Shown here: in pieces, positions 5,129-42,165 of the stretch
Numbering within the stretch: the first letter of the stretch is position 1
Layout: the number at the start of each line of letters is the position of its first letter
Assembly: GCA_963839575.1 (NCBI GenBank)
Contig: CAWIVQ010000003.1
Coordinates: 2,269,378 to 2,333,377 of the forward strand
Length of the DNA: 64,000 bases
Direction of reading: 5' to 3'
Source: an uncultured Actinomycetes bacterium
GTDB taxonomy: Bacteria; Actinomycetota; Acidimicrobiia; IMCC26256; PALSA-610
Program-made: the position numbers and the translations under genes
The notes under the pieces: generated by a model
Told to the model about the DNA's origin: nothing
The model's database searches: none
Seen by the model: the letters and a program-made list of their open reading frames with translations, nothing else

Positions 5129-5734
5129 CTAGGTGAGCGGCTCCGCGGCGCGAGCCGGATCGTTCGCCGGGAGTTGATCCTGCGCCCAGGTCATGCGTTT
5201 CCAGTCGGGGATCGGCGCCTCGACGTCGGGCTTCGGCACGAACTCCGACCGCTCGACCACCTGCAGCCGGTGGATGTAGCGCGAGCAGTTCGGGAAGACC
5301 TGCGTCGTCCGCACGCGCACGACCAGCGCGGCGCCGGCCATCTCCGCGCGCAGGGGATCGTCGAGGTCTACGGACGCGACTCCGTTGACGCGCACGCGGT
5401 TCGGGTGCTCGAAGTCGATGAAGAGCATCCCCACCTTGGCGTGCGAGCGAATGTTGCCGAGCGACAGGAACATCCCGTTCCCGTCGTAGACGGGGAACGC
5501 GATCGTGCGCTCGTCGAGCACGCGCACGAAGCCCGGGTCACCGCCCTTGTAGGAGCACTGCGGGTTGCCGCCGGCGTCGCACGTCGCCAGGAAGAACATG
5601 TCGCGCGACTCGATGAACGCCTTGGCGTGCTCGTCGACGCGCTCGCTCACCAGCAGCTCGTCGATCCGGTCCGCGACCCGGCGCGAGTCGAACTGATCCT
5701 GCCAGTAGCGATGGTCGTCGTTGAAGGTGCCCAC
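5129..5734 (-). CDS. pyridoxamine 5'-phosphate oxidase-related FMN-binding protein
   Basis: Intact 201-aa ORF. MFFLATCDAGGNPQCSYKGGDPGFVRVLDERTIAFPVYDGNGMFLSLGNI is typical of the PNPOx-like split-barrel family. Confidence 0.75.
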   Translation of the reverse strand: MGTFNDDHRYWQDQFDSRRVADRIDELLVSERVDEHAKAFIESRDMFFLATCDAGGNPQCSYKGGDPGFVRVLDERTIAFPVYDGNGMFLSLGNIRSHAKVGMLFIDFEHPNRVRVNGVASVDLDDPLRAEMAGAALVVRVRTTQVFPNCSRYIHRLQVVERSEFVPKPDVEAPIPDWKRMTWAQDQLPANDPARAAEPLT

Positions 5735-5761
5735 GCGACCATCGTCGCACGGTTTCGGGTG

Positions 5762-8180
5762 TCAGCGAAGCTCGTACAGCGGGTTCACGATGGCGAGACG
5801 GCCGTGGTGGTCGATCGCCATGCCCTCGACCGTCACGGTGGCGCCGATGGTGATGCCCTCGATCCCGCGGCGGCCGAAGAACACGACCGACACCGCGCCG
5901 GTCTCGTCGGCGACCGTGCACTCGAGGCTCGGGGCGCCGCCGAGGGGCTCGACGCGGATCGCCTGGATGCGGCCGTGCACCTTCACGTTCTCGCGGCAGC
6001 GCACTTCGTCGATCGGGTTCGCGCCGGGGGGCCGCACGAGCGTCGCGGTGTCGACGTGAGCCTTGCCGTTGCCCTTGGCCTTCCCGTTCTTGACGCCGTT
6101 GCCGTCGCCCGAGCCCTTGCCGTTGGTCCTGGCGTTGCCGAACGGTGCCGGCGCCGCCTCGCCGGGAACGACGATCGTCTCGCGGTCGTCGAAGTGGAAG
6201 GGCACGATGGTGACGTTCGCGTGCGGCAGCCGGGAGATCTCCCGCGACAGCGACTCCGCGGTCTGGTCGTGCAGGATGCGGTGCCACGCGCCGTTGAACT
6301 TTCGTTCCGGCAACAGCACGCAGACCTCGGAGTCGCCGGAGCTCAACTCGTGCGCGACGGTCTCGACCGCGGACCGCGTGAGCCGCCGGTCGGGGCAGTC
6401 GATCAGCTCGAGGCCGAGGTTCGTCAAGCCGTGCTCGCGCCACTCCGCCGCGAGCGTGTCGGCGCCGTGCTCGTCGATGACGAAGTGCACCGCCCGCAGC
6501 TCGTCCGGTCGCAGCGCGCGTCCGAACTGCATGGCCCGGGCCACGGCGAGGTCGAGCCGGTCGACGAACACCATGACGACGAGTCGCTTGCGGACGGGCG
6601 CGGCGACCGCCTTGGGCACGTCGTGCGCCAGGGCTTCGTCCTCCGTCTTGTACTGCTTGGCCAGTCGCATGAGGAAGAAGACCATGATCGGCACGAACAC
6701 GACGATGACCCAGGCGCCGTGCGTGAACTTGAAGATCGCGATCACGATGTCGACGACGAACGAGAGGAAGGCGCCGAACCCGTTGACGAACAGTCCGCAT
6801 CGCCAGCCCTCCTCCTTCTCGCGGATGTGGTGCTTGGCCATGCCCGCCTGCGACAGCGTGAACGACGTGAACACGCCGATCGCGTAGAGCGGGATGAGCC
6901 GGTCGACCTTGGCGTCGGTGGCCAGAAGGAGCACGATCGCGGCGGCCGCGAGGAAGATGATCCCGTTCGAGAAGACGAGGCGGTGACCGCGCTTGGTGAG
7001 TTGACGGGGCATGAAGTTGTCGCCGGCGTGGAACGACGCGAGTCGGGGAAAGTCGGCGAAGCTCGTATTGGCGGCGAGCACGAGGATGAGCATCGTGCCG
7101 GCCTGCAGGCAGTAGTAGAGGATGTTGCCGACGGCCCCGCCGCCGTACGCGAGCTTGCCGATCTGCGAGATGACGGTCGGCGTGCCGTTCGAGAACGGCG
7201 CCACGTGCATCTTGGCGTCCATGATCGACAGTCCGAGGAACATCACACCGAGCAGCGAGCCCATGACGACGAGGGTCGAGCGCGCGTTCTTCCATTCCGG
7301 CTTCTTGAACGCCGGGACGCCGTTCGAGATGGCCTCGACGCCGGTGACCGCGGCGCCGCCCGACGCGAACGAGTGCAGCACGACGCGAGCGCTCGCGCCC
7401 ATCAAGATGCCGCTGCCCTTGGTTCCCGAACGGCATGAGCACCGGAGGCGTGCTGGTAGTTCGCGCGACGCCAGGCTGCCGTTGAACGCCTTGACGACGC
7501 CGACGCCGATGAGGATTCCCATGTTGAGGATGAAGAAGTAGGTCGGGACTGCGAAGACCTTCCCGGATTCGCGCACGCCGCGCAGGTTGCCCCACGCGAT
7601 GATCACGACGAACGCGATCGAGATCCACAGGATCCACGGGATCGAACACCGAGAAGGCCGAGGCGAGGGCGGCCGTACCGGCGGCGACCGACACCGAGAC
7701 GGTCAACACGTAGTCGGTGAGCAGCGCGACGCCGGCGACCTGCGCGGGCAGCAGCCCGAAGTTGTCGCGCGTCACCATGTACGCGCCGCCGGCGGTGGGG
7801 TAGGCCTTGATCGTCTGGCGGTACGACAGGATCAAGAAGAACAAGACGACGAGGAGCGCGGTCGTGATCGGTACCACGAGCGCGAACGCACCCAGTCCGA
7901 CCACGGGGATCAGGACGCGCAGCATCTCCTCGGTGGCGTAGGCCGACGACGACAGGTTGTCCGACGCGAAGACGGCGAGGGCGGTGGGCTTGCCCAGACG
8001 TTCGTGCTCGAGTTGCTCGGTGTGCAGCGGTGGCCCGAGCAGCTTGTTCTTCAGGCGGTAGCGCACGCTGTCGGGGGGCAGCTCGAGACCGGGAACGACG
8101 GGCACCGGCATCGGCAGCGAAGACGCCGTGTCCTTGGCGGCAGGAGCCGTGTCGGTCGTCGGAGTCGGCTCGGTGAGCAA
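5762..8180 (-). CDS. APC-family amino acid permease with cytosolic C-terminal extension ending in an OB-fold-like domain (one frame change at about 7638-7640)
   Basis: N-terminus LGKPTALAVFASDNLSSSAYATEEML is followed by about 12 TM segments. The C-terminal region has a G/K-rich linker and then VKVHGRIQAIRVEPLGGAPSLECTVADETGAVSVVFFGRRGIEGITIGATVTVEGM. Confidence 0.8.
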
Positions 8181-8387: not shown

Positions 8388-11300
8388 ATGAGGATCGGGC
8401 GGCGCGTCGGAGTCGTGGCGCTCGTCGTCGCGGCCTCGACCGGCCTGCTCGCAACGACGCCGGTGCGGGTTCCGGCGCTCACCACCGCCCGGCCGTCCAT
8501 CCCACTCTCCCCGCCGACGGGGATTACCGGGGCGCCGGGCACTCGCCGGGCGGCGCGGGCCATCCGGCACCAGGTTCCCGACATCGACCTCGACCACGTC
8601 GTGGTGCGATTCCGTTCTCGTCCGGCCGATCTCTCGGCCCGCCTCGCGCTCGACGGTGCGCGCATCAGCCGCGTCGATCTCGGGGACGAGCTGGACCGAG
8701 CTCGCCACGCCGAATCACACCGCACGCCGGGTGCGCGCCGCGTTGCTCGCGCGATCCCGCCGTCGCCCAGGTCGTGTTCTCGTACATCCGCCACGCGTCG
8801 ACCCTGCCCAACGATCCGCAGTGGGCGGCGAAGCAGAGCAGCGTACCTCTCGCCGCTCCGGCTCGATCGGGCCTGGGACATCAGCCAGGGGAGCGGCGTG
8901 ACCGTCGCGGTCGTCGACACCGGCACCGATCTCGACCATCCTGACCTCGCGGGCCAGCTCGTTGCGGGTCGCAACGTGCTGCACCCGGGCGCATCGCCGC
9001 AGGACGACAACGGGCACGGCACGCTGGTCAGCGGGCATCGTCGCCGCAAGGACGAACAACAATCGCGGCGGTCGTCGGCATCGCGCCGAGCGCGAAAGTC
9101 ATGCCGGTGAAGGTGCTCGACTCCAGCGGGAGCGGGAGCGACGCCGACATCGCGCTCGGCATCGACTGGGCGCGCACTCACGGCGCCAAGGTGATCAACC
9201 TCTCGCTTGGGCGGGTCGTTCGACGATCCGATGCTCGCCGACGCCGTGCAGAACGCGATCGCCGCCGACATCGTCGTCGTGGCCGCCGCCGGGAACGACG
9301 TCGGCCGAGACGGTCGGGTTCCCGCCGCCGTACCCGGGTGTCATCGCGGTGAGCGCGACGACCGCCACTGGTGCACTCACGTCGTTCTCGAGCTACGGAT
9401 GGCGGATCGACGTCGCCGCGCCCGGTCTCGACATCACCTCGACCGCGCTCGGTTCGGGCGACCAGTACGCGACCGAGTCGGGTACGTCGTTCTCGTCGCC
9501 GATCGTTGCCGGCGTCGCCGCGCTCGTTCGCTCGAGGCACCCGACGTGGACGCAGCAACAGGTCGGCGACCAGATCCGCAACACCGCGCGCGACGTCGGG
9601 CTCCCGGGAGTCGATCCCGCGTTCGGGCACGGCATCGTCGACCCGCTCGCCGCGCTCGGCGGGCCTCCGGCCGCGCCGCACCCGGCCGTGCGGGTCGGTG
9701 CCGACGAACCGAACGACACCGCGACCGATGCCACGCCCGCTGGCGATCGGTGCCGTCGCACAGCGCGCAGATCGCGCCCGAGACCGACGAGGACTGGTAC
9801 CGCGTGAACTTCGTCGTCGGCGGGCTGGTACTCGATCCACGTGCCGACCGGTCCGGCCGCGCTCGACCACGAGATGGACCCGATCGTCGAGCTGTACCAC
9901 CCCGACAATTCGTTCGCGGCATCGCAGGAGCTCGCGGGCGGCGACCTCCTCTTCGACGTCACGGTCACCGGCAACTACTTCGTGCGGGTGCGGAACGTGA
10001 ACGGCAGTACGGCGCCGTACACGATCGTCGTGCAGGTCGACCTCGCACACCGGCGCGTTTCGCTGCCGTCGCTCGACGTCGACTTCGGCACGCCCGCGCA
10101 GTCGGTCGGGATCGCCGACGTCGACGGCGACGGGCGCAAGGACGCGCTCGTCGCGTTCGGTGACGCAACACGGCGTTTCCCGACACGCTCGCCGTGTTCG
10201 CCCAGACGCCGAACCGCTCCCTCTCGCTGCTCGCCGCGCTGCCGACCGATCGTGATGACGGGGGGCGGGATGGCGACCGGCGATCTCGACGGCGACGGCA
10301 GGCCGACGTGGCGATTCCCGTGAGCGGGGGCATCGACGTCTTCGCGAACACCTGAGCGCGAGCACGGTTCCCACCTTCATCGCCGCGCCGGGGACGACGA
10401 GCGGTCGCGATCGCCGACGTCGACGGCGACTCGCACAACGACATCGTCGCGGTGGGAACGTTCGGGCGTGAAGGTGTTCTGGGGGCCGTCGTTCACGGCG
10501 CCACCGACCTCGACGAGCGTGAGCGTCAGCGGCGGCGGGGTCGACCGTGGCGGTCGGCAACGTGACCGGCCACGGCGACAACCTCCTCGACGTCGTGACC
10601 TCGGGTGTCAACGTGTTCCGGCAGACGTCGGCGCGCTCGTTCGCGGCCGCGGTGCTGCACACCGTCACGAATGGTTCGGCAGTCGCCGTCGGCGACGTCA
10701 ATGCCGATACCGCGCCCGACGTCGTGACGAGCGTCCACGCGAGTCCGGGGGCAGTGAGCCGGTTGGTGTCACGACGGCAGCGGCGGTCTCGTCGCGGCGG
10801 CGGCGTTGCCGACCGAGGCGAAGCCCGAGCCGATCGCGGTTTCCGACGTCGACGGCGACGGGCGCGACGACATCGTCGTCGTGCACGACTTCGTGTCGAC
10901 GGGGTTCTTCTCGGCGCCCGCCGACGTCGGATTGGCTCCCCCAGACCGCGCCCGGCGTCTTCGGCGCGGAAGCAGACGTTCTCGATCGACGACTTCAACA
11001 CCGACCTACGACTCGAAGGCCCTCGCGGTCGGCGACCTCGACGGCGACGGTCGCGACGACGTGCTGGTCGCCACGGGGTTCGGCATCGCGATCCTCGTGC
11101 AGAACTCGGGGCTGCTCCCTTCGCTCGGCGCAGCCTGGGTCGTCGACGCGCAGCCGCAGTCGCTCGCGACGAACGTGGCGGCCGGCGTCGAATCCGACCG
11201 TCACGCTCGGGCGCAACGTGACGAACGTCGACGGGACGACGGTGCAGCTCCGCGATGCCGTGGGGCACACCGTGGCGGCAACGGTTTCCTACAACGCGTG

Positions 11301-12438
11301 GCGCGCCGGATCACCGATCACGCCGACGGCGGCGTTGGCGAACGGTCGGTACTCGATCCATCTCGCCGGGCTGACCGACACCGGGGGCGAGACGCTCGCC
11401 GACGCGGGCACGACGTTCACCGTCGGCCCCGCGCCCGACGAGATCGCGCCGCAGACCACGCTGCACTCGCCGCCGTCGGGGTTCCGCACGAGCGCGACCG
11501 CCACGCTGTCGTTCAGCGCGAACGAGGCGCGGTTCGGCGTTCTGGTGCAGCGACAACAATCAGCCGTACCACGTGTGCACGTCACCGCAACAGCGTCACC
11601 GCGACCGCCGGGGACGCACTCGTTCCGGGTGTTCGCGCGCGACGTTGCCGGCAACGAGGATCCGACCCCGGCGCTGGCGACGTGGACGTACCGCCTCGCC
11701 GGTGCACGGCTACTGGATGCTCGGGGGTACGGGCACGATCTATCACTTCGGCAACGCCCCGGGCCTCGGGAACGCGTCGACCGCGTACGCGGCCGACGTC
11801 GACGTCTCCGTCTCGGGCTACGGCTACTGGATCGTCGACGCCGTCGGCCGGGTGTTCGCCTTCGGCGACGCCCGGTCGTACGGCAACGCGCCGGCGCTCG
11901 GCGCCGGCGATTCCGTGACGAGCATCAGCCGGACCGCTACCGGGAACGGCTACTGGCTGTTCACCCGGCGCGGGAGGGTGTACCCGTTCGGCGACGCGCA
12001 CTTCTACGGCGACCTGCGCAGCGTCGCGCTCAACGGCGGCGTGGTCGATTCGGTCCGGACGCCGTCGGGCCACGGCTACTACATGGTCGCGTCGGACGGC
12101 GGAGTGTTCTCCTTCGGCGACGCGCGCTTCCACGGATCGACCGGGCGGCACGAAGCTCAACCAGCCCGTCGTGGGACTCGTCGCCGACTCCCGACGGCCG
12201 CGGCTACTGGCTCGTCGCGGCCGACGGCGGCGTGTTCGCGTTCTCGGCGCCGTTCCGCGGCTCGATGGGCGGCGTGCACCTCAACCGGCCGATCGTGGGC
12301 ATGGTCGCGTTCGGGAACGGCTACCTGATGGTCGGCGCCGACGGCGGCATCTTCGACTTCTCGACCAAGCCGTTCCTCGGATCGCTCGGCGGCAACCCGC
12401 CCGCGGTGCCGATCGTCTCGGTCGCCGCAATCGGCTGA
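8388..12438 (+). CDS. giant secreted multidomain protein: signal peptide, S8 subtilase, PPC domain, FG-GAP/VCBS repeats, Ig-like domains, 6 GYW-type repeats (more than 10 frame changes)
   Basis: [22 protein letters not shown] signal. Catalytic triad [44 protein letters not shown]...DEDWYRV (PPC). Repeats [47 protein letters not shown]. Ig-like [22 protein letters not shown]. Then [14 protein letters not shown] repeats up to the stop at 12438. Confidence 0.7.
11704..12438 (+). repeat. six tandem ~42-aa GYW / DGG(V/I)F.FGDA.F.GS coding repeats (putative beta-propeller blades)
   Basis: [142 protein letters not shown]. Confidence 0.8.
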
Positions 12439-15664: not shown

Positions 15665-16293
15665 CTAGTGCTGGGGGCGGACGACGATGATCGGGGTCAG
15701 CTCGTCGTTCTGGCCGAGCGGATTGTCGAGCAGCACCTCGCGCACGGCTGGCGCGCGACCGGGAACCCGCTGCTCGTGCCGAGCACCTCGACGTTGATGT
15801 TGTTGGCATCGACGATCGCGACGGGCGTCCCCACGTGTGGCGCGATCTCTTCCGCGGCGGCGTCGGGATCGGCCGGGCCGAGCATCGCGAACTCGTCGAA
15901 CGGCTTCACGGTCGCGGGGCTGAAGCCGTCGATCTCGGAGATGCGATGGCCGGCGACCCGGTAGAAGTCGCCCCGGCGCCGGAGGACGAATCGGGTGAAC
16001 GAGCCGATGATCATCGCGAACAACATGCGCCACCAGCCCGCCTGCATGATCGCGACCTGCATCTTGCGCGGATCCGAGTAGCCGACGTCGTCGGGGTGTT
16101 TGGTGACGCCTTTGACGAGGAGCTTGGCGAGCACGCCGGGGCGGACGACGGAGTGATGGATCACGCGGCCCTGCGAGATCGTGACGAACTTCTCCGAGAC
16201 CGCGAGCCAGTCGCCCGGTTGCAGCACCGGCTTCACGTACTCGTCGAAGACGGGCTCGAGTGGTTCTTTGATGTGGATCAGATGCGTTTGCAC
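15665..16293 (-). CDS. CofE-like (F420-0:gamma-glutamyl ligase family) protein, one frame change near 15760
   Basis: LAVSEKFVTISQGRVIH...VAIVDANNINVEVLGTSSG is typical of the PF01996-type fold. The C-terminus REVLLDNPLGQNDELTPIIVVRPQH is in a second frame. Confidence 0.65.
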
Positions 16294-16335
16294 CGGGATC
16301 CGCTCGTAGTCGACGCCCTCGGCGTCGGCGCGTCG

Positions 16336-18159
16336 TCATACCGCGACCGCCTGATCCATGTAGCGGCGCATCCAGAGCTCGGTCACGAGCACGCGCCAGA
16401 AGATGAGGCCGTCGCCGGGTCGACCGGCGAGGTACTCGTCCCAGGAGGTGACGAGCTGCGCCGGGTTGTAGAGATCGCGCGCTGCCAGCTCGGGCGACGA
16501 GAAGACGGCGCGGATCTCGCGCGCCTTGGCCTTCATCCACGTGATGTCGGGGTTCGTGAACCCGACCTTCGAGCGGCGGAGCCGATTCTTGTCCGGCATG
16601 CGGCCCTTCATCGCGTTGCGGTACACCGCGCGGTTCCAACCGCCCTTGATCTTCTGGTCGATCGGCAGCGAGAAGATGAACTCGACCAGCTCGTGGTCGA
16701 GGAACGGGACGCGGGCCTCGATCGAGAACGCCATCGAGTTCTTGTCCTCGTAGCGGAGGAGGTCGGGCGTCGAGTACTGGAGCACGTCGCTCGCGAGGCG
16801 CTCGTTGAGGTTCTTGTGCGAGTGGAACTGCACGCCGGCCGCCGAGCCGGGCTGGAGCAGCTCGCGCGCGTTCACCGGGTTGGCGCCGCGCTGCGGCAGC
16901 TTGGAGCGGATGAGCTCACCGGCGTACTTCTTGTAGAGGTCGCGACCCTTGACGATCTCGCGCCCGGCCGCGAGGTAGTGGCGCTGCGCGATCGCGGAGC
17001 TGAGGTACGCGCGGAAGTAGGGGATGTAACCGGCGAGCAACTCGTCGCCGCCGTTGCCGCTCACCATGACCTTCACGTACTGGCTCGCGAGCCGGTACAC
17101 GGAGTAGTAGGCGTAGGGCGCGGAGGCGATCGTCGGCTCCTCCTGGTACCAGATCCACTCGTCGATCTCGTTCCAGAAGTCGTCGAGCTTGGGGTACGCG
17201 TAGTGCGGGATGCTGCCGACCGCACGCTCGACCTCGTGGATGTATTCGCTCTCGTCGATCGTCTCGCCCGGGAACAGGGCGGAGAAGGTGAAGAGGCCGG
17301 ACGTGTGCAGGTCGGTGCCGCTCGACATGAGGCGCGCCATGGTGGTCGCGACGCCGCTCGAGTCGAGCCCGCCCGACAGCGGCACGCCGACCGGCACGTC
17401 GGAGATGAGATGGCGCTTCACCACGCCGTCCCACCGGCTCGCGAACTCCTGCGCGTAGTCGTCGTCGGAGCGGCTCGACGCGAACTCCGGATTGACCGGT
17501 GGGTTCCAGTAGCGCTCGATCTTCACGATGCCGTCGGGTCGGACCAGCATCGTGTGGGCCGGGAGCAGCCGCTTCACGCCGTCGAAGAAGGTGTCTTCAC
17601 CCTCGTCGTGCAGGCGGAACAGGAGGAAGCGCCTCACCGCGTCGGCGTCGGGCCGGCGCGGTACCCGGGCGTCTTGGAAGAGCGCTTTCAGCTCGGATCC
17701 GAACGCGAAGCCGTTCGGGCCGTCGACGTAGTAGAGGGGCTTGATGCCGAGGCGGTCGCGCGCGAGGAACAGCTCACCGCGTTCGTGATCGGAGATCGCG
17801 AACGCGAACATGCCCGTCAGGCGGTCGACCACACTGCGGCCCCACTCCTCGAAGCCCCGCAGGATGACCTCGGTGTCGGAGTGGTCGGTGACGAAACGCC
17901 GGCCCCGCTGCTCCAGCTCCCGGCGGAGCTCGGCGTGGTTGTAGATCTCGCCGTTGAAGACGAGCGCGAGGTTGCCGTCGTCGCTGTAGAGCGGCTGATC
18001 GCCGGTGGCGACGTCGATGATCGCGAGCCGCCGCATCCCGATCGAGAAGTGGCGGCCGATGTCGGTGCCCTGACCATCGGGGCCGCGGTGCACGATCGAA
18101 CGCAACATGCGTTCCAAGAGCTCGGGATCGGAGCCGGCGAAGCCGACGATGCCACACAT
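16336..18159 (-). CDS. asnB: asparagine synthetase (glutamine-hydrolysing)
   Basis: Intact 607-aa ORF. MCGIVGF carries the N-terminal nucleophile Cys2. Also GMRRLAIID and the SGGLDSS PP-loop. Confidence 0.9.
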   Translation of the reverse strand: MCGIVGFAGSDPELLERMLRSIVHRGPDGQGTDIGRHFSIGMRRLAIIDVATGDQPLYSDDGNLALVFNGEIYNHAELRRELEQRGRRFVTDHSDTEVILRGFEEWGRSVVDRLTGMFAFAISDHERGELFLARDRLGIKPLYYVDGPNGFAFGSELKALFQDARVPRRPDADAVRRFLLFRLHDEGEDTFFDGVKRLLPAHTMLVRPDGIVKIERYWNPPVNPEFASSRSDDDYAQEFASRWDGVVKRHLISDVPVGVPLSGGLDSSGVATTMARLMSSGTDLHTSGLFTFSALFPGETIDESEYIHEVERAVGSIPHYAYPKLDDFWNEIDEWIWYQEEPTIASAPYAYYSVYRLASQYVKVMVSGNGGDELLAGYIPYFRAYLSSAIAQRHYLAAGREIVKGRDLYKKYAGELIRSKLPQRGANPVNARELLQPGSAAGVQFHSHKNLNERLASDVLQYSTPDLLRYEDKNSMAFSIEARVPFLDHELVEFIFSLPIDQKIKGGWNRAVYRNAMKGRMPDKNRLRRSKVGFTNPDITWMKAKAREIRAVFSSPELAARDLYNPAQLVTSWDEYLAGRPGDGLIFWRVLVTELWMRRYMDQAVAV

Positions 18160-18211
18160 CGCGGTCAGCCTACGGGTGGCGCGCGGCCGCCGGGGGCCTG
18201 GCCGCTTCCGA

Positions 18212-18875
18212 TCAGTCGGGTTCGGGTGGGGCCAACGTGGTCGGTCCCACGTGGCGGTCGAGCCACCGGTTCACGGGTGCGGCGTCACGCCAGGCCCCGA
18301 CGATGCGGTCGGCCGCGCCCGCCGTGTGCAGCCAGCGCGGCGCGCCGAAGCCGCGGCCGACGTGCAGGCCCTTCATACGCAGCAATTCCGCGCGCGGATG
18401 ATCGGGGTCGAATCCGCGTGGTGCGCGCTTCAGCGACTCGCGCGTTCCGACCTCGTACTTCTCGGCGCGCGACGGCCGCGACGGCGGCCGCGAGCTTCGG
18501 GCCGGTCCGGTGGTCGGCCACCGCGTCACGAAAGCGCGCCAGCTGATCGCTCTGCAGGTGGTAGTACCCGCTGGCGGTCCACAACCCCTCCCCGGAGATC
18601 TGTACGTAGTACGACGCGCCGCCCTCACTCTCGGTTACCGCCGCCGCGGCCGTCTTGTACGGCGTCTTGTCCTTGGAGAAGCGTGTATCGCGGTTGGGCC
18701 GGAACATCCGCAGCGGACCGAACTCCCGCTCGATCAGGGTCGACAACTCGAGGAACGGCGCCTTGACGCATTCGTCGTAGACGGCTCGGTTCGCCTGCCA
18801 GAACGCCTTCGAATTGTCGGCCTCGAGCCCGACGTAGAGCTCCAGGGCCGCGTCGGGCCAACCCCTGAACGTCAC
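18212..18875 (-). CDS. DUF2461 / TIGR02453 family protein (one frame change near 18480)
   Basis: FRGWPDAALELYVGLEADNSKAFWQANRAVYDE...RMFRPNRDTRFSKDKTPYKT. GTG 18875-18873 overlaps the TGA of the upstream LigD-Pol gene. Confidence 0.75.
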
Positions 18876-33303: not shown

Positions 33304-33331
33304 AAACCGGTTCCTCGACCCGCTTTAACCA

Positions 33332-33386
33332 CCAACAGTTGGCATGGAAAGTGGGTTGTGGGGCCGGTTTTGCTGCCAACTGTTGG
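33332..33386. terminator. 13-bp perfect inverted repeat (CCAACAGTTGGCA / TGCCAACTGTTGG) between convergent genes; likely bidirectional terminator or REP-like element
   Basis: Arms at 33332-33344 and 33374-33386 with a 29-nt loop. It lies between the MFS stop (33303) and the efeB stop (33398). There is no clear U-tract. Confidence 0.45.
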
Positions 33387-33397
33387 ATGATGAGAGG

Positions 33398-34658
33398 TTA
33401 GGTGAAGAGGGTGGCCGAGGTACGCGTCGGTGGTGACGCCGGGGAGGACGGCGAAGGCGGCGCTGCCGTCGTGCTCGATGTAGTCGTTCAACGCGTCGTT
33501 CTCGGCGAGCCGCTGCTGTAAGGGGATGAACTGGCGGCGCGGGTCGCGTTGGAACGCGACGAAGAAGAGGCCGGCGTCGAGCTCGCCGGTGACGGGGTCG
33601 ATGCCGTCGCTGAAGCTGTAGCCGCGGCGCAGGATGCGCGCGTCGCCGTTCTCGGCCGGCGCGGCGAGCCGGATGTGCGCGTCGGCCGGGATGACGAGCT
33701 TGCCCTTGGCGTCCGTCGCGGCGAGCTCCGGCGGGTCGTGCTCGTTCAGCCTGCCGAGCGGCGCGCCGGTGAGCTTCGAACGGCCGATCGTGGCTTCTTG
33801 GTCGGAGAGGGCGGAGCGGTCCCAGTGCTCGAGGCGCATGCGAATGCGACGGGTCACCATGTACGTGCCGCCGGTCATCCACGCGGGCGCGTCCGTGGCG
33901 CCGGCCCACACGTGTTCGCGCATGAGCGCGGCGTCGCTCGTGTCGAGGTTGTTCGTGCCGTCCTTGAAACCCTGCAGGTTGCGGGGACTCGATTGGCTGC
34001 CGGTCGACGCGGCCGGGCCGAAGCCGAGCTGCGTCCAGCGGATCGACGCGACGTCGTGCCGCGATGCGGGTCAGGTTGTGGAACGCGTGGAACGCGACCG
34101 TGGCGTCGTCGGCGCAACATTGCAGCGCGACGTCGCCCCCGCTGCGAGCCGGATCGAGGCTCTCGCCGCCGCCGAACGCCGGGATCTCGACGAGCGGCGC
34201 CGGGAGCTCGACGCGAGCCCGAGCCGGTCGCGACCGTGGGCGTCGACGAACACGCTGCGGCCGAGGCCGACGGTGATCGTGAGGTGCGACGCCGGGAGTT
34301 CGAGGGCCTCGCCGGTGTCGGTCGGCGCCGCGTCCGCCTCGGCGGGTTCGACCGCGCCGATCGGCTTGCCCGCGCTGAGCAATGCGGCCGCGCTCGACCA
34401 CTTCCGCAGCAGCGTCTGCAGCGCGGCGCGATCGTCGCGAAGAGGTCGAAAGCTCGCGAAGACGAGCCGGTTCTGCGGGGGGGTGAGGATGCCGGCCTGG
34501 TGGGCGCCGTGAAAGGCGACGACGTCGGGGGCGGCGCCGGATGCGCCCGCCGTGGACGACGAGGCGGCGCTGCATCCGCCGACGGCGAGCGCGGCGCCCG
34601 CGACCGCGAGGGCGCCCGCGCCGCCGAGCACCTCTCGGCGTGACGGGCGCGCGCTCAC
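33398..34658 (-). CDS. efeB: Dyp-type peroxidase / deferrochelatase EfeB with Tat signal (at least 4 frame changes)
   Basis: MSARPSRREVLGGAGALAVAGAALAVGG (twin-Arg). FHGAHQAGILTPPQ. TYMVTRRIRMRLEHWD, RRGYSF and GLFFVAFQRDP. Confidence 0.8.
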
Positions 34659-34659
34659 G

Positions 34660-35819
34660 TCAACCGGTCACGAGGAGTGCCGGCACCTTGGCCAGCGAAT
34701 CGGCCAACGCCTCGACCCGCGCGGCGAGCGCCCGGGTCTGCGGCCTTGTCAGCTCGGTGTAGAGCGCGAAGCCCCCGCCCGGGGGCTTGTACGCGTCGAG
34801 TGCCCTGTCGGTCGAGGCGAACTGCTGTGCGATCGTGCCGGCGAGCGCCGGATTCTCGGCCGCGACGAGTGGGCGTACAGCCTCGATGGCCGCGATCGAG
34901 CCGTCGTTGTTGGCGTCGAAGTCCCACAGGTCGGTGTGAGAGTAGCGGTCTTCCTCTCCGGTGATCTTGCTGCTCGCGACCTCGTTCATGAGCTCGACCG
35001 CGCCGTTCGCGATCTGTGCGGGTTCGAGCGTGATGGTCGGGACGAGCGACTGCAGCCGTTTCACGTCGGCGAGCAGCTGGTCGGCGACCGGCGCCATCCC
35101 CGCGGTGTTGGCGGACTCCCACAGCTGCCGCTCGATTCGGTGGAATCCCGTGAACCGGGCGCCGGCGGGAACGTCGTTGATCCGGGCGTCGATGGCGCGG
35201 TCGAGGTTGCCGAAACTCTCGGCGATCGGTTCGATGGTCTCGTAGTGCGTGCGCGCGCTCGGGAAGAGTCTCCGGGCGCCGGCCAGATCACCGGCCTTCA
35301 CCGCGTTCACGAAGTTCGTGGTCGCGGCCACGAGCTGCGTGGCCTCGGCCTCGACGAAGGCTCGGTAGCGGGAGACCGCGGCCGCGCTCCCGGCCGGTGC
35401 GACCGTGGTCTTCTCCGCGTCGGCGGACACGACGATGTCGCCCTTCGCGGCGGTGGTGCCGTTCGGGCAACCGTTTCGTACGTGCCCGGTGTCAAGGTGA
35501 CGCTGAACGACCCGGAAAGGCCCGGAGTGAGGTTCTCGACCTCGCCGATGATGCGGCCGCCCTGCTGCAGCTCCATCTCGGTGACCGCGTCGGCGCCCTT
35601 GTTGCGCACCTCGAAGGTGGCCGGTCCGCCGGCCAGCCCGAGGTGCGCGGGGTCGCATCCCGCCTTCGTCAGCGCGAACGGCACCTTCTGCACGCCGGTG
35701 GTCGACGCGCGGCGCGTCGTTGCCGACGAGCCGCAGCCGCTCACGGCGACGGCCAGCGCGGCGCCCGCGGTCAGCGCGGCGCTCGCGGCCAGGATCGAGG
35801 ATCGGTGCACGTGTGTCAT
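34660..35819 (-). CDS. efeO: iron uptake component EfeO (lipoprotein; cupredoxin-like N-domain plus M75/imelysin domain), one frame change near 35470
   Basis: Lipobox AVAVSGCGS. FEVRNKGADAVTEMEL. HYETIEPIAESFGNLDRAIDAR...FTGFHRIERQLW. Confidence 0.8.
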
Positions 35820-36676
35820 CCCCCCACCGTGGCGGGCCGCGGCGCCGGCGCCGACGCCGGCGACGTGTTCACTCCGGCAGGTCGCGCCGGTACGGCGACG
35901 ATGACGAGGAACGGCACCGCGTAGACGACCCACGCGACGACCTCCGCCCAGGTCGGCCGCGGCTGCAGCCCGAACATGCCCGTGATGAGCGCGGCGCGGA
36001 CGCTGCCCGGATGCACGAGCCACCGAAGGTCGAGCGCCGGGCCCTGCAGCGAGTCGAGCCATCCGGCCTCGTGCGCGGTGTGCGCGGCGGTGGCGAGGAG
36101 GCCGGCCGCGACGAGCACCAGGACGATGCCGGTGACCCGGAAGAAGCGCGCCATGTCGATCTTCACGCCGCCGCGGTAGATGCCGTAGCCGATGGCGACG
36201 GCGACGACGATGCCGAGCACCGCGCCGGTCATCGACGAGGTTGCGTTCGTCGACGACTGGAGGATCGCGAGCAGGAACACCGCGGTCTCGAACCCTTCGC
36301 GGAGCACCGCGAGGAACGCCATGAGGATCAGCGCCCACGCGGAGCCGGTCGCGAGCGCGGCCGCGGCGCTGGCTTCGAGATGTCCTTTCAGCTCGCGGGC
36401 GTGGGCGCGCATCCAGAGCACCATCCAGCTGACGAACGCGACCGCGACGAGGCCGACGATCGTCTCGAGTCCCTCTTGGCTGCGTTGGGGGAGGCTGCGT
36501 TCGGCGATCCGCAGCGCGATGCCGCCGCGAGGCACAGCGCGACGCCGAGGCCGACTCCCGTCCACAGCGCCCCATCTCGCGGGTGCGGCCGTTGCGCACA
36601 AGAACGCGGCGACGATGCCGACGATGAGCGAGGCCTCGAGGCCCTCTCGCAGTCCGATGACGAAGGTGGGAAGCAT
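35816..36676 (-). CDS. efeU: FTR1-family iron permease EfeU (ORF stays open, but about 26 codons at 36521-36598 are out of frame)
   Basis: REGLE and REGFE motifs with about 7 TM segments. Alternative frames restore VRNGRTREMG and ALWTGVGLGVALCLAA where the open frame reads CATAAPARWGAVDGSRPRRRAVPRGG. Confidence 0.85.
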   Translation of the reverse strand: MLPTFVIGLREGLEASLIVGIVAAFLCATAAPARWGAVDGSRPRRRAVPRGGIALRIAERSLPQRSQEGLETIVGLVAVAFVSWMVLWMRAHARELKGHLEASAAAALATGSAWALILMAFLAVLREGFETAVFLLAILQSSTNATSSMTGAVLGIVVAVAIGYGIYRGGVKIDMARFFRVTGIVLVLVAAGLLATAAHTAHEAGWLDSLQGPALDLRWLVHPGSVRAALITGMFGLQPRPTWAEVVAWVVYAVPFLVIVAVPARPAGVNTSPASAPAPRPATVGG

Positions 36677-36700
36677 GCGGGGCGGGCTCCGGGCTCCGAA

Positions 36701-36740
36701 CTAAGGGTGACCTCACCTAACTTAGGGTACCCTTAGTAAG
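36701..36740. promoter_or_regulatory. two tandem ~20-bp AT-rich quasi-palindromes resembling DtxR/IdeR-family iron boxes
   Basis: CTAAGGGTGACCTCACCTAA followed by CTTAGGGTACCCTTAGTAAG. Unit 1 has the outer TAAGG...CCTAA arms of TWAGGTWAGSCTWACCTWA (12-14 of 19 matches). It lies 24 nt upstream of the efeU start. Confidence 0.4.
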
Positions 36741-36823
36741 TCGTCAAGGTGCGGGGTCGCGTCGGTTCACGGGCCGCCGTCCGGAGGCGCTCATCCGGGT
36801 CCGATTCGAGCCGATCGTGCAAC

Positions 36824-39342
36824 GTGATGGTGGCGCGGAGCCGGCGGTCGGTGGTGGCGGCGATCTCGACGGCCCTCTGTCTGGTCGCGTTCGTCTCGTT
36901 CGGCGACGATGGCGCGCAGCGGAGCGGCGGTCGACACGAACGCGCCCGTGCTCGTGTCGCTCGCGATGAGTCCCACGACCGTCGACACGTCCGCCGGCCC
37001 CGCGGTCGTCACGATCACCGCCCGGCTCACCGACGAACGCAGCCCGTCGATCGGGGGCACCGCGCCGCTCAGCCGGGTCGTGCTGACCGGGCCCGGCGGC
37101 CAGCAGCAGGCGACCGCCTACCTCTCGCAGGCGCAACGGATCTCGGGCACCGCGACCGACGGCGTCTACCGCTCGACCTTGACGATCCCGTGGCACGCCG
37201 CGCCCGGCCAGCTGGAACGCGTCGGCGGTGCTCGTCGACATCTCGGGCAACACGGCGACGCTGACCACGGCCGAATCTCGCCGCCGCCGGCTTTCCGTCG
37301 TCGATCGACCAGACGGGCGCGGGCGACACCACCGCGCCGCAACTCGTCGCGCTCGGCATCGCGCCCCCGAGCGTCGACACGTCGTTGCAGCCGGCGACGA
37401 TCACCGTGAGCGTGCACGCCGTCGACGACCTGAGCGGCGTGTCCGACGGCGTGGCGATGGCGGCGAGCCAGGTCGTGCTGCGCGGCCCGAGCGGCGCGCA
37501 CCACGCGCGCGCGACTCTGAGCGTCGACCACCGCACCGCGGGCAACGCCGTTCGACGCGACCTTCGTCGTCGCGGTCACGCTGCCGCGCTGGTCGGAGCA
37601 AGGTGACGTGGACCGTCGAGAGCGTGACGCTCGTCGACCAGGTCGGCAACCAGCAGACGCTGACCGCGCCGGGCGTCACGTTCACCCAGACGGGCATCGG
37701 CGACACCTCGCCGCCGCAGTTCCGCTCGTTCTCGCTGTCGACGACGAACGTCGACGTGCGGACCTCGTCGGCTTCGATCGTCATGCGGAGCCGCATCGTC
37801 GACGATCTCTCGGGTGCGGCCGACGGGTTGGTCGACTCCGCGACGTCGGTCGTGTTCGAGTCGCCGTCGGGCCGGCAGCGCCTGACCGTGCCGTTCGGTG
37901 CCGCGCAACGCGTCGGCGGGAACGGCCTCGACGGGAACTACTCGATACAGCGCGACCGTGCCCGCCCACGCCGAACCCGGCGTGTGGACGATGACCGACG
38001 CGTGGCCGACCGACCAGGCCGGCAACGTCGGGCACCTCTCGGCCGCCGACTGGGCGGCGAAGGGGTTCCCGGGTCGTTCACGGTCGTGTCCGACACGCCG
38101 CCCGACACCGGTCCGACGGTGCCGCCCGACCCGACGACCACGTCGACGACATCGGGTTCGGTGTTCACGACCACGACCGATGCGGGGGTCTCGACCACCA
38201 CGGTTCCGGGGAATTCGACGACCTCGGCTCCGATACGACGAGCACGACGAGCACGACGGTCGACCCCTCGAGCACGACGACACGACGATCCTTCCCGACA
38301 CGAGCGATCCCGACACGAGACCACGGTTCCCGGCGACGGCAACTCGACGTCGACCTCGACGACGGTGCCGGAAAGCACGACGTCGGTGCCGGACGCGACG
38401 AGCACGACGACGACGACCACGCACCGACGACGACCACGCACGACCGTGACGACGCACGACGCTCGACGACGACCACGGTCGCGCCCACGACGACGACCAC
38501 GGTCGCGCCCACGACGACGACCACGGTTCCCGTGCACTCCGACTCGCGGCGGTACGCCGCATCTGCGCCGGGCGAACGGCTACTGGTTCGCGACCACGAC
38601 CGGGCGCGTGCGTCGGCTTCGGCGCGGCCGCGCCCGCGTCGCATCGCGAGCGCGTCCTAGCCGGGCTCGGCGGCGTTCGACCGCGTCGTCGGGATCGCGA
38701 GCACGCCGTCGGGCAAGGGCTACTGGCTCGCGACCGCGCTCGGCGACGTGCGGGCGTTCGGCGACGCGCGCTCGTACGGGTCGATGCGCGGCCGACCGCT
38801 GACCCGAGCCGATCGTCGGCATCGCCGCGACACCGAACGGCGCACGGCTACTGGCTGGTCGCGACCGACGGCGGGATCTTCAGCTTCGGCAACGCGCACT
38901 TCTACGGCTCGACCGGCGCGATCCACCTGAACCAGCCGATCGTCGGCATGACGTCGACGCCGAGCGGCCACGGCTACTGGTTCGTCGCGGCCGACGGCGG
39001 CCTGTTCAGCTACGGCGACGCCCGCTTCTTCGGATCGATGGGCGCGACCCACCTGAACCAGCCCGTCGTCGGCATGACGCGCACGCCGAGGGGCCGCGGC
39101 TACTGGATGGTCGCCGCGCGACGGCGGGATCTTCAGCTTCGGCGACCGCGCGGTTCTTCGGGTCGACCGGCGCCATGCACCTGAACCAGCCGATCGTCGG
39201 CATGGCGGCCTCGCCGACGCGCGCACGGCTACTGGTTCGTCGCCGCCGACGGCGGGGTCTTCAGCTTCGGCGACGCCCGCTTCTTCGGGTCGCTTGCGGG
39301 CCCCGGCGCCGCGTGGTCGGGATGGCGGTTCGGGCGTCCTGA
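36824..39342 (+). CDS. large secreted protein: signal anchor, three ~115-aa Ig-like modules, Thr/Pro-rich linker, six GYW-type repeats (more than 10 frame changes)
   Basis: [27 protein letters not shown]. Modules each have D.xAP.L.S..(S/A)P..VDTS...DDLSG...G.W.V..V.L.D..GN. Linker [22 protein letters not shown]. Then [24 protein letters not shown]-type repeats. Confidence 0.65.
38575..39342 (+). repeat. six tandem GYW / DGG(I/V)F.FGDA.F.GS coding repeats (second copy of the repeat family in the window)
   Basis: [124 protein letters not shown]. Confidence 0.75.
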
Positions 39343-39614
39343 CCGTTCTGGGCCCGGCGAGAGGCGGTGGGGCGCGTGGGGCGAGTGTGACCTCGGTCTC
39401 CGGCCCCGGGCGCCTCTCAAGGGGCCCTCGAGCGGCCGACGATGAAGCCGAATCATGCTCTCCATCCCGAAGCAATCGGCAGCCGCGCGACACCGGCGCG
39501 CCCGGCGGACGACTTCGTCCCCGGCGGCTCGGATCGGGCCGCCGCGGCTCGCTCCGGTAGCGCCCGCACCGTCGCGAGCGTGGTGGTCGCGCCGGTGATC
39601 GTCGCCGCGTCCCG

Positions 39615-42165
39615 GTGAGCGGGTCGGTCCGGCGGCTCGTGTACCTCGGCGCGCTGGTGCTCGTCTGGTCGTTCATCGTGCGCGCGGTGCTGCGCACAGC
39701 GCGCGTCCGGCGCTGGACGGGCGTCGCGTCGGCACCGGGCTTGTCGTCCTCGGTGAAGGCTGCGCGCACGCTGTTCGTCACGTCGGGGCACGTCGAGTTC
39801 CTGCACGGCCGCCGACGGGCTGCGCATCGCCGCCTACCTCGTGCTGGTCGTCACGTTCGGTGCGATCGTCCGCCAACGACACTCCGACAACGGCCAGGCG
39901 TCGGTGCTCGACGGCGCGATCGTCGGCTGCGCGCTGTTCGCCACGTGCTGGCCGATGCTGGCGTACCCGTCGGCGATGTCGCGCTCGGCCGAGGTGTCGG
40001 GCGGATGCTCGGCGTCGCGCGGCCGTTCCTCGCGATCGTCCTGTGTGCGGTCGGCGTGCGGCTGTTGTTCCGCCACGAGGGCGCGTCGAGACTGCTGTTC
40101 GTCGGCGTCGTCCCGCTCGCCGTCGCCGACCTCTTCGAAGGCGCCGGGCTCACCCACTCGACCGGAACCGGTCACGGCGCTGCTCGAGATCGGCGCGCTG
40201 TTCGCGCTCTCGATCGATCGCGATCGCGGCGCGCCGGGCCAACGGCGGCCGCGACGCGGAGCTCGTCGACATCGATCCCGCGAACCGGCTGCGCGTGCTG
40301 TGCATCCTGACGTCGGTCGCGCTTGTGCTCGGCGATCCCGCTCGCCGACGCGTGGTCGTCCGGCCATCGCGACGTCTCGACGCTGGTGCCGGGCGCGTGC
40401 GCGATCGTCATGTTCGGGCTGATCGCGCTGCGGCTCTGGCACCTCGCCGCCGGCGCGCGCGCGGCGGGTGTGCGGCACGGCCTGCGACGGCTCGGCGCGT
40501 TGGTGCAGGGTCTGAACGACGCGATCTTCGTCGTCGATCGCGCCGGTGTCATCTCCTACGCGAGCCCGCGAGCGAGCGCGATCCTCGGCGTCGACGCCGA
40601 CGAGCTGGTCGGGCGGCGGTTCGACGAATCCCTCGGGGACGGAGAGTCCGATCGGATCGCCCGCCAGCTCCGCGCCTCGGCGCGCGTCGCCGCTCGGCGC
40701 GCACGAGGAGCTCGTCGGCGTCTTCGTCGACGGCGAGGGCGCGCCGCGCGACTTCGAGATGAGCATCGTGAACATGCTCGGCGACAAGGACGTCGCCGGC
40801 CTCGTCGTCACGATGCGCGACGTCACCGTGAAACGCGAGCTGGCGCGCGAGCTCGAACAGCGGGTGTTCCGCGACGACCTCACCAAGCTCGCGAACCGTT
40901 CGCTCTTCCTGGACCGCCTCGACCAGGCGCGGCTGCGCAGCCGCCGCACCGGCGCGGGGATCGCGGTGATGTTCGTCGACCTCGACGACTTCAAGGCGGT
41001 CAACGACGGTCTCGGCCACGCCGCGGGCGACACGCTGTTGTGCGCGGTGTCCGGACGCTCGAGCGAGTGCCTCCGCCCGAGCGACACGATCGCGCGTCTC
41101 GGCGGCGACGAGTTCGCGGTCCTGCTCGACGGTGTCGCCGACGTCGCCGAGGTGATGATGGTCGCGCACCGGCTGCTCGAGGTGCTGCAACTCCCGGTCG
41201 AGATCGACGAGCTGTCGGTGACCGTTCCGGCGAGCATCGGGATCGCGATGGCCGAGCAGGGTCACGCGCACAGCAACCTGATGCGCGACGCCGACATCGC
41301 GCTGTACCGGGCGAAGGAACAGGGCAAGAACCGCATCGCGCTGTTCGACACGTCGATGGGGTGGGAGGCGTACTCGCGGCTGCGCCTGCGCACGCAACTC
41401 GAGTCGGCGATCGAGAACGCACGAGCTGCGCGTGCTGTTCCAGCCGATCATCTCGCTCGGTTCCAACGAGATCGTCGGGGTCGAGGCGCTCATCCGTTGG
41501 GAGCACCCGAAGCTCGGCACGCTCTCGCCGTCGGAGTTCATCCCGATCGCCGAGGAGAGCGCGCTCATCACGGTGATCGGCCGGTGGGTGCTGCAGCGAG
41601 GCGTGCGCGCACGCGGCGCGTGTGGAACCAGGGCGATCGCAGTCTGTACGTGAGCGTGAACGTCTCCGCCCGCCAGTTGCGCGAAGCCGGTTTCGCGGCC
41701 GAGATCGCGGCCGCGCTCGCGTCGTCGGGCCTCGAACCGTCGAAGCTCATGCTGGAGCTCACCGAATCGGTGCTGATCGACGAGGTCGCCGGGCAGAACC
41801 TGGTCGACAACGTCGCGCCGCTCGGCGTCGGGATCGCGATCGACGACTTCGGCACCGGCTACTCGTCGCTCGCGTACCTGCAGCGGTTCCCCGTGAACGT
41901 CGTGAAGATCGACCGCAGCTTCGTGTCGCGGCTGAACGAGGACGGCATGCGCGCGGTCGTGAAGAGCATGGCCGCGATCTCGGCGGTGATGGGCTACACG
42001 AGCATCGCCGAAGGTGTGGAGACGCCCGAGGAGGCCGCCGATCTCGTCGGTCTCGACTACGGCTTCGCGCAGGGCTTCCTCTACAGCCATCCGGTCGGCG
42101 CGGCCGAGATCAACACGCTGCTCGGTGCGACCGGGCCGATCCGGCCGGAGACCGCCGCGCTGTAA
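39615..42165 (+). CDS. polytopic membrane sensor with PAS, GGDEF and EAL domains (at least 8 frame changes; true start may be upstream, as early as about 39463)
   Basis: About 8 hydrophobic segments. NDAIFVVDRAGVISYASPRASAILG (PAS). RLGGDEFAVLL and DIALYRAKEQGKNR (GGDEF). VEALIRWEHP, ELTES, DDFGTGYSSL and KIDRSF (EAL). Confidence 0.75.

Follow-up and report, generated by a model that had tools for sequence, protein, structure and literature searches.

A secreted GYW-repeat protein beside efeUOB in an uncultured actinobacterial genome: a predicted glycan-binding propeller, putative efeU operators, and clade-specific gene order

The stretch of DNA analyzed here (the window) comprises 64,000 nucleotides (nt) from the genome of an uncultured soil actinobacterium of the Acidimicrobiia type and has a G+C content of 70%. 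It contains a gene for a large secreted protein with C-terminal GYW repeats. The gene is divergent from the iron-uptake genes efeUOB, and two DtxR/IdeR-like boxes lie between them. Tentatively, with confidence just short of even, we read the product as a secreted, surface-retained protein. An immunoglobulin (Ig)-like stalk would be joined through a long spacer rich in Thr, Pro, and Ser to a GYW propeller at the C terminus, which would bind glycans of the wall or of other kinds. The signal peptide would export the protein. The three Ig-like modules (DUF7034, DUF7743, and DUF7035) would serve as an extended stalk or an adhesin-like passenger, and the spacer of ~150 amino acids (aa) would cross the wall zone. 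By binding glycan or peptidoglycan, the six-bladed propeller would keep the protein attached to the wall of the cell or to a different glycan surface. The gene would be driven from a promoter-like element of its own, and the tandem boxes would act as operators of the efeU promoter. Retention at the surface is suggested because the GYW domain is C-terminal behind the spacer and occurs in promiscuous fusions with peptidoglycan hydrolases and further exo-enzymes. It is also suggested because RTX or dockerin modules replace the domain in relatives of the stalk, and because GYW-like repeats occur in a phage tail-like protein.

The product was stitched across reading frames from a three-frame translation and a frame plot of G+C content at third codon positions (GC3). 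Coordinates of the features are given in Table 1. Translation and repeat analysis confirmed the original prediction of a signal sequence, three modules, a Thr/Pro/Ser linker of ~150 aa, and six GYW repeats. The repeats start at 38578, 38718, 38846, 38972, 39098, and 39227. The spacer differs in length among orthologues and is present without interruption in locus L013. The gene lies where it was predicted. Its start was moved from GTG 36824 to ATG 36827, one codon later, since this ATG is invariant in alignment A4. The motif DDLSG, predicted for every module, occurs in modules 2 and 3; module 1 has TDERSPS.

The N terminus is basic and hydrophobic. It contains an RR pair, a hydrophobic stretch, and a small-residue motif, which are kept in orthologues P0003, P0005, P0007, P0008, and P0011. 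The small-residue motif (ARSGA|AVD) is conserved and follows the hydrophobic (h) region. The sequence SRRS is a Tat-type feature. This segment had been called a signal anchor, a claim that is unproven. The signal peptide is probably cleavable, of the Sec or Tat type, because the conserved small-residue motif follows the h-region. An LPXTG motif with a hydrophobic segment and a basic tail was sought at the C termini of the window, L013, and P0005 proteins and was not found. All three proteins stop right after the last repeat.

The stitched window protein matched Pfam families DUF7034, DUF7743, and DUF7035 with 28.4, 39.2, and 41.3 bits, above the gathering threshold of 27 bits. The L013 orthologue matched the same families with 37.5, 34.4, and 35.8 bits. 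An AlphaFold2 model of the P0005 stalk contained three all-beta domains of the beta-sandwich type. The predicted local distance difference test score (pLDDT) was 95.2, and the predicted template modeling score (pTM) was 0.84. Foldseek searches with this model retrieved tandem Ig arrays of adhesins and macroglobulin (MG) domains, including those of SiiE, RbmA, a mastigoneme, and alpha-2-macroglobulin. Like the SiiE bacterial Ig-like (BIg) domains, RbmA, and the MG domains of alpha-2-macroglobulin, the stalk has three consecutive beta-sandwich modules. The likeness to these arrays is at the fold level only, with a whole-chain template modeling (TM) score of ~0.2 and an identity of 14 to 15%. The modules bear the conserved Asp-rich motifs D.TAP, DDLSG, and D..GN. 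NCBIfam and PDB sequence searches with the stalk gave no match, and literature searches for DUF7034, DUF7035, and DUF7743 returned nothing relevant. The three families are Pfam families without a named role, and we propose that the stalk is extended or adhesin-like.

Full-length orthologues were 51 to 88% identical and came from uncultured Acidimicrobiia and Actinomycetota metagenome-assembled genomes (MAGs) and from soil metagenomes. Distant relatives of the stalk were present in other lineages. There, the GYW domain was replaced by RTX Ca-binding repeats (27 of 92) or by dockerin (4 of 92). In the GYW position, RTX and dockerin are alternative modules for secretion or anchoring.

The GYW domain of P0005, which has five repeats and not the six of the window, was modeled as compact and all-beta (pLDDT 93, pTM 0.89). 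The model is a closed circular array of blades, one per repeat, as in a beta-propeller. Foldseek matched it to 860 PDB chains at E ≤ 0.001. The 50 best listed were beta-propellers, mostly of the WD40 type, with a TM of ~0.5. The domain thus resembles propeller lectins and WD40/RCC1-type propellers as a predicted closed all-beta propeller with one blade of ~42 aa per repeat. It differs from WD40-type propellers in that the best TM was ~0.5, to seven-bladed WD40 proteins. The aromatic residues Y, W, and F are conserved in every blade.

Sequence searches with the GYW region against Pfam, NCBIfam, and PDB gave no match. Among the propeller hidden Markov models (HMMs), RCC1_2 was matched below threshold only (19.9 bits versus 22), and no WD40 match was reported. 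The HMMs of LysM, SH3b, PG_binding_1, SLH, CW_binding, and LGFP did not match the region either. Literature searches for a GYW repeat, motif, or domain and for the repeat peptide strings returned nothing relevant. The GYW profile matched 21,215 clusters at 50% identity; E values were ≤ 1e-30 for 12,269 of these. The repeats are usually C-terminal in family members. GYW is a very large family (~21,000 clusters at 50% identity), for which neither Pfam nor NCBIfam offers a model and no structure has been solved.

Two samples of the family were examined for partner domains. The first contained the 120 best-scoring homologues, mostly shorter than 370 aa. Another Pfam domain was present in 29 of these, and in 16 of the 29 it was peptidoglycan active or peptidoglycan binding. 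The partners in this sample included NlpC/P60 (seven proteins), transglycosylase-like domains (three), and M23, VanY, YkuD, 3D, CHAP, and PG_binding_1 (one each). The second sample contained 80 longer members. Their partners ranged over secreted enzymes of many kinds as well as Ig and propeller domains, including S8, trypsin, A4, GH43, GH99, GH3, and Big_3_5.

These fusions resemble the use, in surface proteins and lysins of Gram-positive bacteria, of non-covalent wall-binding modules, which are likewise joined to peptidoglycan hydrolases and other secreted enzymes. The arrangement as C-terminal tandem repeats behind a Pro/Thr-rich spacer is also shared with such modules (LysM, SH3b, PG_binding_1, GW modules, choline-binding repeats, and LGFP). 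Unlike them, the GYW domain has no sequence match, is a predicted beta-propeller, and has a binding activity that is predicted only. The GYW propeller may be an unrecognized targeting domain for the wall or peptidoglycan glycans in Acidimicrobiia and related Actinomycetota. Through it, peptidoglycan hydrolases, proteases, glycosidases, and adhesin-like stalks like the present one would be tethered to the envelope. We offer this family-wide role as a possibility with the balance of doubt against it. If the propeller binds wall or glycans, tens of thousands of hypothetical proteins from uncultured Actinomycetota that abound in soil would gain a named domain, and the placement of peptidoglycan-remodeling enzymes and surface proteins in these organisms would be explained.

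The only phage hit was MK557849.1 (L102, 42901-46815), where two arrays of GYW-like repeats lie in a protein of 1,304 aa. The genes that follow are annotated as chitinase and esterase. Although the phage protein bears the annotation "glycoside hydrolase family 25," no Pfam domain matched it, and it was not counted as an endolysin. The GYW propeller may have been borrowed by this phage tail-like protein. The window itself contains another GYW-repeat gene, the first in the stretch (~10531-12427, plus strand). It encodes FG-GAP-like DVDGDG repeats, an Ig-like segment, and six C-terminal GYW-type repeats, and it is frameshifted. No efe genes adjoin it.

The gene under study is not an intact open reading frame (ORF) in the window. 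The ORF listing of the window contains none that spans 36824-39342, and the original prediction, which treated it as one gene, crossed frames silently. The GC3 frame changes repeatedly along the gene while the protein continues without stops. A tblastn match with the intact orthologue P0005 hops between frames. The nearest relative, L013 (MAG MFD01299.bin.2.46), has an intact ORF of 831 aa with 91.9% nucleotide identity to the window gene. Alignment with L013 revealed 35 indel events, 31 of which were not multiples of three and most of which were 1-nt insertions. Most other orthologues read in one frame. The database protein P0021 (524 aa) is identical to a spurious ORF at 37228-38802. The sequence of the window very likely comes from a long-read MAG.

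Decay of the gene in its source organism would account for the ~30 indels that are not multiples of three and for the lack of a spanning ORF. We regard a pseudogene as extremely unlikely. Mismatches to L013 at codon positions 1, 2, and 3 were 5.9, 3.9, and 14.5%, and their concentration at third positions indicates purifying selection. The stitched, corrected frame runs through without an in-frame stop. The disruption is regional and not specific to the gene. Compared with L013, efeB-efeO-efeU contain 12 indels that are not multiples of three, and the downstream PAS-GGDEF-EAL gene contains 24. Viterbi segmentation showed frequent frame switching across the window. The DyP gene was confirmed to be intact in L013. 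In L001/P0001, a second assembly from long reads, the frame is shifted close to the same CCCGGG site, but the shift takes another form. Because flanking genes are broken alike and substitutions favor third codon positions, these comparisons lead us to conclude that the organism has an intact gene and that the frameshifts are assembly (consensus) errors. Gene calls anywhere in the window are trustworthy only after indel correction. The density of indels is uneven. Many genes between 25000 and 47500 switch frame every few hundred bases, and two ORFs of ~1.9 kb stay intact (5762-7702 and 16336-18270).

The prediction had tied the gene to iron through its divergent neighbors and the boxes shared with them. 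The neighbors are as described, with a complete, Pfam-supported efeU-efeO-efeB set on the minus strand. We collected 20 distinct orthologous loci of the GYW gene and built a neighbor-joining tree on the stalk region. An intact, divergent efeU was present in seven loci (the window, L001, L007, L012, L013, L014, and L016), and a remnant of efeU was present in three (L002, L010, and L018). It was absent from the other 10. All of the efe-adjacent loci fell into one crown group, which also holds the efe-less loci L006, L008, L011, L015, and L019. The outgroups L003, L004, L005, L009, and L020 lack both the efe genes and the boxes. Seen from efeU, the GYW gene lay upstream in 4 of 59 metagenomic loci with an upstream flank of at least 600 nt. 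EfeU was at least 78% identical to that of the window in all four.

The association with efeUOB is therefore not kept across lineages, since it is confined to one shallow clade with repeated loss. This largely refutes conserved synteny as a link to iron. The GYW gene appears to have acquired its efeU neighbor once and recently, and a clade-specific accident of gene order is the best explanation of the adjacency. No counterpart of the GYW protein is known from the EfeUOB systems of Escherichia coli and Bacillus subtilis, which comprise three genes. The EfeUOB set of the window is complete, and the GYW protein stands beside efeU in one clade only. For the original prediction the value of this result is negative: adjacency to efeUOB is no evidence of an iron function here. 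In L010 (1-2210) and L018 (3834-6000), an MFS_1 transporter gene stands in place of efeUOB, and the boxes and first efeU codons are kept. In L002 (1206-1403), efeU is reduced to its last 50 codons, and the boxes are kept.

The tandem boxes themselves were borne out. They have TWAGG half-sites and are conserved in 10 orthologous intergenic regions. Of all sites in the 64 kb, box 1 comes closest to the IdeR consensus; 0.05 matches of this quality were expected per shuffle. A position weight matrix of 20 boxes had invariant T1, A3, G4, G5, C10, and A14, with G6, T7, C11, and T12 in 18 or 19 of the 20. From these positions, the conserved core is the 14-bp palindrome TnAGGGTACCCTnA (TWAGG-N4-CCTWA). 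It occurs in two copies 20 bp apart; in two loci the distance between the copies is 15 bp. The DtxR/IdeR iron box is a 19-bp palindrome, TTAGGTTAG(G/C)CTAACCTAA, described for the DtxR regulon of Corynebacterium glutamicum (PMC1382209). The window boxes resemble it in their TWAGG/CCTWA half-sites and in their tandem placement on the core promoter of an iron-uptake operon. They differ in that the conserved core is 14 bp and not 19 bp and in that the matches to the consensus are limited (Table 1).

The boxes overlap the core promoter that we infer for efeU, an iron-acquisition gene. Box 2 lies within the promoter spacer, and the pair of boxes extends over the -10 hexamer. Box 1 lies over the expected transcription start, just downstream of the -10 hexamer and 26 nt from the efeU ATG. 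The hexamers (CGTCAA and AACTTA on the plus strand) are conserved in A4, and a layout of TTGAC(A/G), 17 to 18 nt, and TAAGTT is also present in L021-L027. A simple scan of 36500-39700 for sigma-70 promoters and terminators found no site, and the proposed promoters rest on comparative conservation. The arrangement of the boxes is, as far as sequence can tell, the classical repressor-operator layout for efeU.

A second series contained 80 orthologous metagenomic loci of efeU, of which 78 upstream regions were scanned for iron boxes. Near-canonical boxes with at most four mismatches were found in 31 of the 78 and with at most two mismatches in 12, for example TTAGGTAAGGCTTACCTAA with two mismatches. 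The 12 loci were L032, L039, L048, L053, L061, L073, L081, L082, L086, L091, L096, and L098, and the boxes were ~20 to 80 nt upstream of efeU. The efeU orthologues with near-perfect 19-bp boxes were 53 to 60% identical. The TWAGG-N4-CCTWA palindrome was present upstream of efeU in many loci without a GYW neighbor, in the same place as canonical boxes elsewhere. Together, the canonical 19-bp boxes and the 14-bp palindromes form a graded operator series, a natural case of how DtxR-family operators diverge.

Orthologous promoters of relatives thus carry recognizable iron boxes. Because distant efeU promoters carry near-canonical ones, iron control of efeUOB is plausible. We assign the boxes to efeU because they overlap the putative TTGACG-17-TAAGTT promoter and because such boxes precede efeU in loci without a GYW neighbor, and they are probably efeU operators of the DtxR type in a variant form. 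Genes for DtxR-family regulators adjoin efeU in L070 (2697-3383, minus strand), L066 (2614-3285, plus strand), and L036 (3-551, minus strand). Pfam confirmed the L066 and L070 regulators, with Fe_dep_repress, Fe_dep_repr_C, and FeoA domains. The palindrome TGTAAGGTATGCCTTACA is upstream of efeU in L036 and L070. In the window and in L001-L020, tblastn with an approximate IdeR query revealed no gene of the DtxR family.

The GYW gene has a conserved upstream element of its own. CTCA-N17-CCGATCG-N7-9-ATG precedes it in 21 of 24 orthologous loci (L001-L025 upstream regions), whatever lies upstream. The element is present in the efe-less loci L003-L006, L008, L011, L015, and L019. A Shine-Dalgarno sequence was not evident at the GYW start. 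The element is possibly the gene's own promoter, perhaps used by an alternative sigma factor, with a leaderless or short-leader mRNA. An RNA hairpin was also considered for the element, and the stems drawn by eye shifted from locus to locus. Measured from the GYW start codon, the boxes are centered ~95 and ~115 nt upstream and fall outside this element.

The predicted co-regulation of the GYW gene with efeUOB is not supported by these positions, with boxes on the putative efeU promoter and a separate element kept even where efe genes are missing. Under that proposal, IdeR/DtxR would co-repress the GYW protein with efeUOB through the shared boxes, and the protein would capture extracellular iron or heme for Efe. 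It is consistent with the divergent genes and their ~150-bp intergenic region with two conserved DtxR-like boxes, with an adjacency kept in 7 of 20 loci plus four JGI contigs, and with the canonical iron boxes before efeU in other lineages. We judge it very unlikely. The adjacency has been lost at least four times within its one shallow clade, is missing from all five outgroup loci, and is absent from 55 of the 59 efeU loci. The boxes lie outside the promoter-like element of the GYW gene. For each of the two domain families, most occurrences are in contexts unrelated to iron. The predicted domains show no likeness to a known metal- or heme-binding fold. Structure prediction, which had been suggested as a way to find metal or heme sites, led only to generic propellers and tandem Ig arrays in the Foldseek top-50 lists. 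No NEAT, hemophore, hemopexin-type, or other metal-binding fold was among the top Foldseek matches, although a lack of hits is not proof. No Pfam or NCBIfam metal-binding family matched the GYW protein.

The most conserved neighbor of the GYW gene is a PAS-GGDEF-EAL gene for cyclic di-GMP (c-di-GMP) turnover, which is steadier than efeUOB upstream. It was found by tblastn downstream in 14 crown-group loci, including efe-less ones. Its L013 orthologue (8610-11309) matched Pfam EAL (1e-66), GGDEF (1e-46), and PAS. The GYW protein could accordingly be an adhesin or biofilm-matrix protein under c-di-GMP control. Its propeller would then bind an external ligand, such as a plant or soil polysaccharide or another cell, and not the cell's own wall, and the downstream protein would control or sense its deployment. 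We consider this unlikely. It is consistent with the direct downstream position of the GGDEF-EAL gene on the same strand whatever lies upstream, with a stalk that resembles adhesin arrays such as SiiE and RbmA, and with GYW partners that include glycosidases and proteases. However, conservation of the gene pair does not reach beyond the same moderately shallow group, so that it may reflect inherited gene order. The outgroups with enough downstream flank (L004, L009, and L020) have no GGDEF-EAL neighbor, and L003 and L005 end too near to judge. The two genes are separated by a GC-rich hairpin (39343-39435; -71 kcal/mol) that is unexceptional against shuffles (z = -1.8). A simple scan found no T-tract terminator in this interval.

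Several points weigh against the surface-retained reading. Peptidoglycan enzymes were not among the commonest partners in the sample of 80 longer members. A general lectin or ligand-binding role fits the data equally. No solved or annotated relative of GYW was found, and wall binding rests on the partner statistics of 120 mostly short homologues. The number of repeats appears to vary among orthologues from four to six, which is odd for a closed propeller. This last argument was set aside. Six position-specifically conserved repeats are present in 13 loci including the window, the shorter versions are mostly on short-read contigs, and their repeats may have collapsed in assembly.

Other points concern the boxes. 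They survive beside the GYW gene in L010 and L018 although efeUOB has been replaced by an MFS gene, and a function for the GYW gene as well is one possible reading. In corynebacteria, a single DtxR site is able to control two divergent genes (PMC1382209), a precedent that also suits shared control with efeUOB. DtxR is moreover a dual regulator that activates ftn and dps (PMC1382209), and the tandem boxes are at upstream-activator distances from the GYW start. A DtxR-family regulator might thus modulate the GYW protein through the upstream boxes with no part in iron uptake, for example by activation when iron is plentiful. GYW expression would in that case be opposite to that of efeUOB. Such modulation seems improbable to us. 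Orthologues outside the efe-adjacent group have no boxes and yet have the same promoter-like element. The now-useless first codons of efeU survive in L010 and L018 too, which suggests that the rearrangement there is recent. For the surface-retained protein, we continue to assign the boxes to efeU, with the GYW gene possibly served by its own element.

Table 1. Positions of the GYW-repeat gene, its parts, and its neighbors in the window
Feature	Position	Strand	Details
GYW-repeat secreted protein gene	36827..39342	+	ATG 36827 to stop ending 39342; conceptual product ~838 aa
Signal sequence, N-terminal	36827..36919	+	Read directly from the translation
Three tandem Ig-like beta-sandwich modules	36921..38074	+	Roughly 36921-37275, 37274-37604, and 37606-38074; ~115-125 aa each
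Thr/Pro/Ser-rich low-complexity spacer	38074..38560	+	~150-160 aa
Six 42-aa (126-nt) GYW repeats, predicted beta-propeller	38560..39342	+	Repeat families D1-D4
Conserved upstream element CTCAT-N17-CCGATCG	36790..36817	+	9 nt before ATG; invariant columns in A1 and A4
Membrane PAS-GGDEF-EAL (c-di-GMP turnover) gene, multi-pass	39442..42165	+	~100 nt downstream, same strand
Box 1, TAAGGGTGACCTCACCTAA, DtxR/IdeR-like operator (putative)	36702..36720	.	14/19 to TTAGGTTAGGCTAACCTAA
Box 2, TTAGGGTACCCTTAGTAAG, core a 14-bp palindrome TnAGGGTACCCTnA	36722..36740	.	12/19 to consensus
Putative efeU core promoter	36719..36747	-	-35 TTGACG (36742-36747), 17-nt spacer, -10 TAAGTT (36719-36724); inferred
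efeU (FTR1-family iron permease)	35816..36676	-	Pfam FTR1, E 3.6e-51
efeO (Peptidase_M75/imelysin)	34660-35658	-	Pfam; region 33325..35658 carries indels
efeB (DyP peroxidase)	33325-34575	-	Pfam

Elsewhere in the window, a paralogous gene pair occurs twice on the minus strand, ~10.6 kb apart (5129-7702 and 15697-18270). Each pair encodes a PNPOx-like protein of ~211 aa, followed by a protein of ~646 aa. The latter contains AA_permease_2 and a weak C-terminal match to an OB-fold (tRNA_anti-codon).

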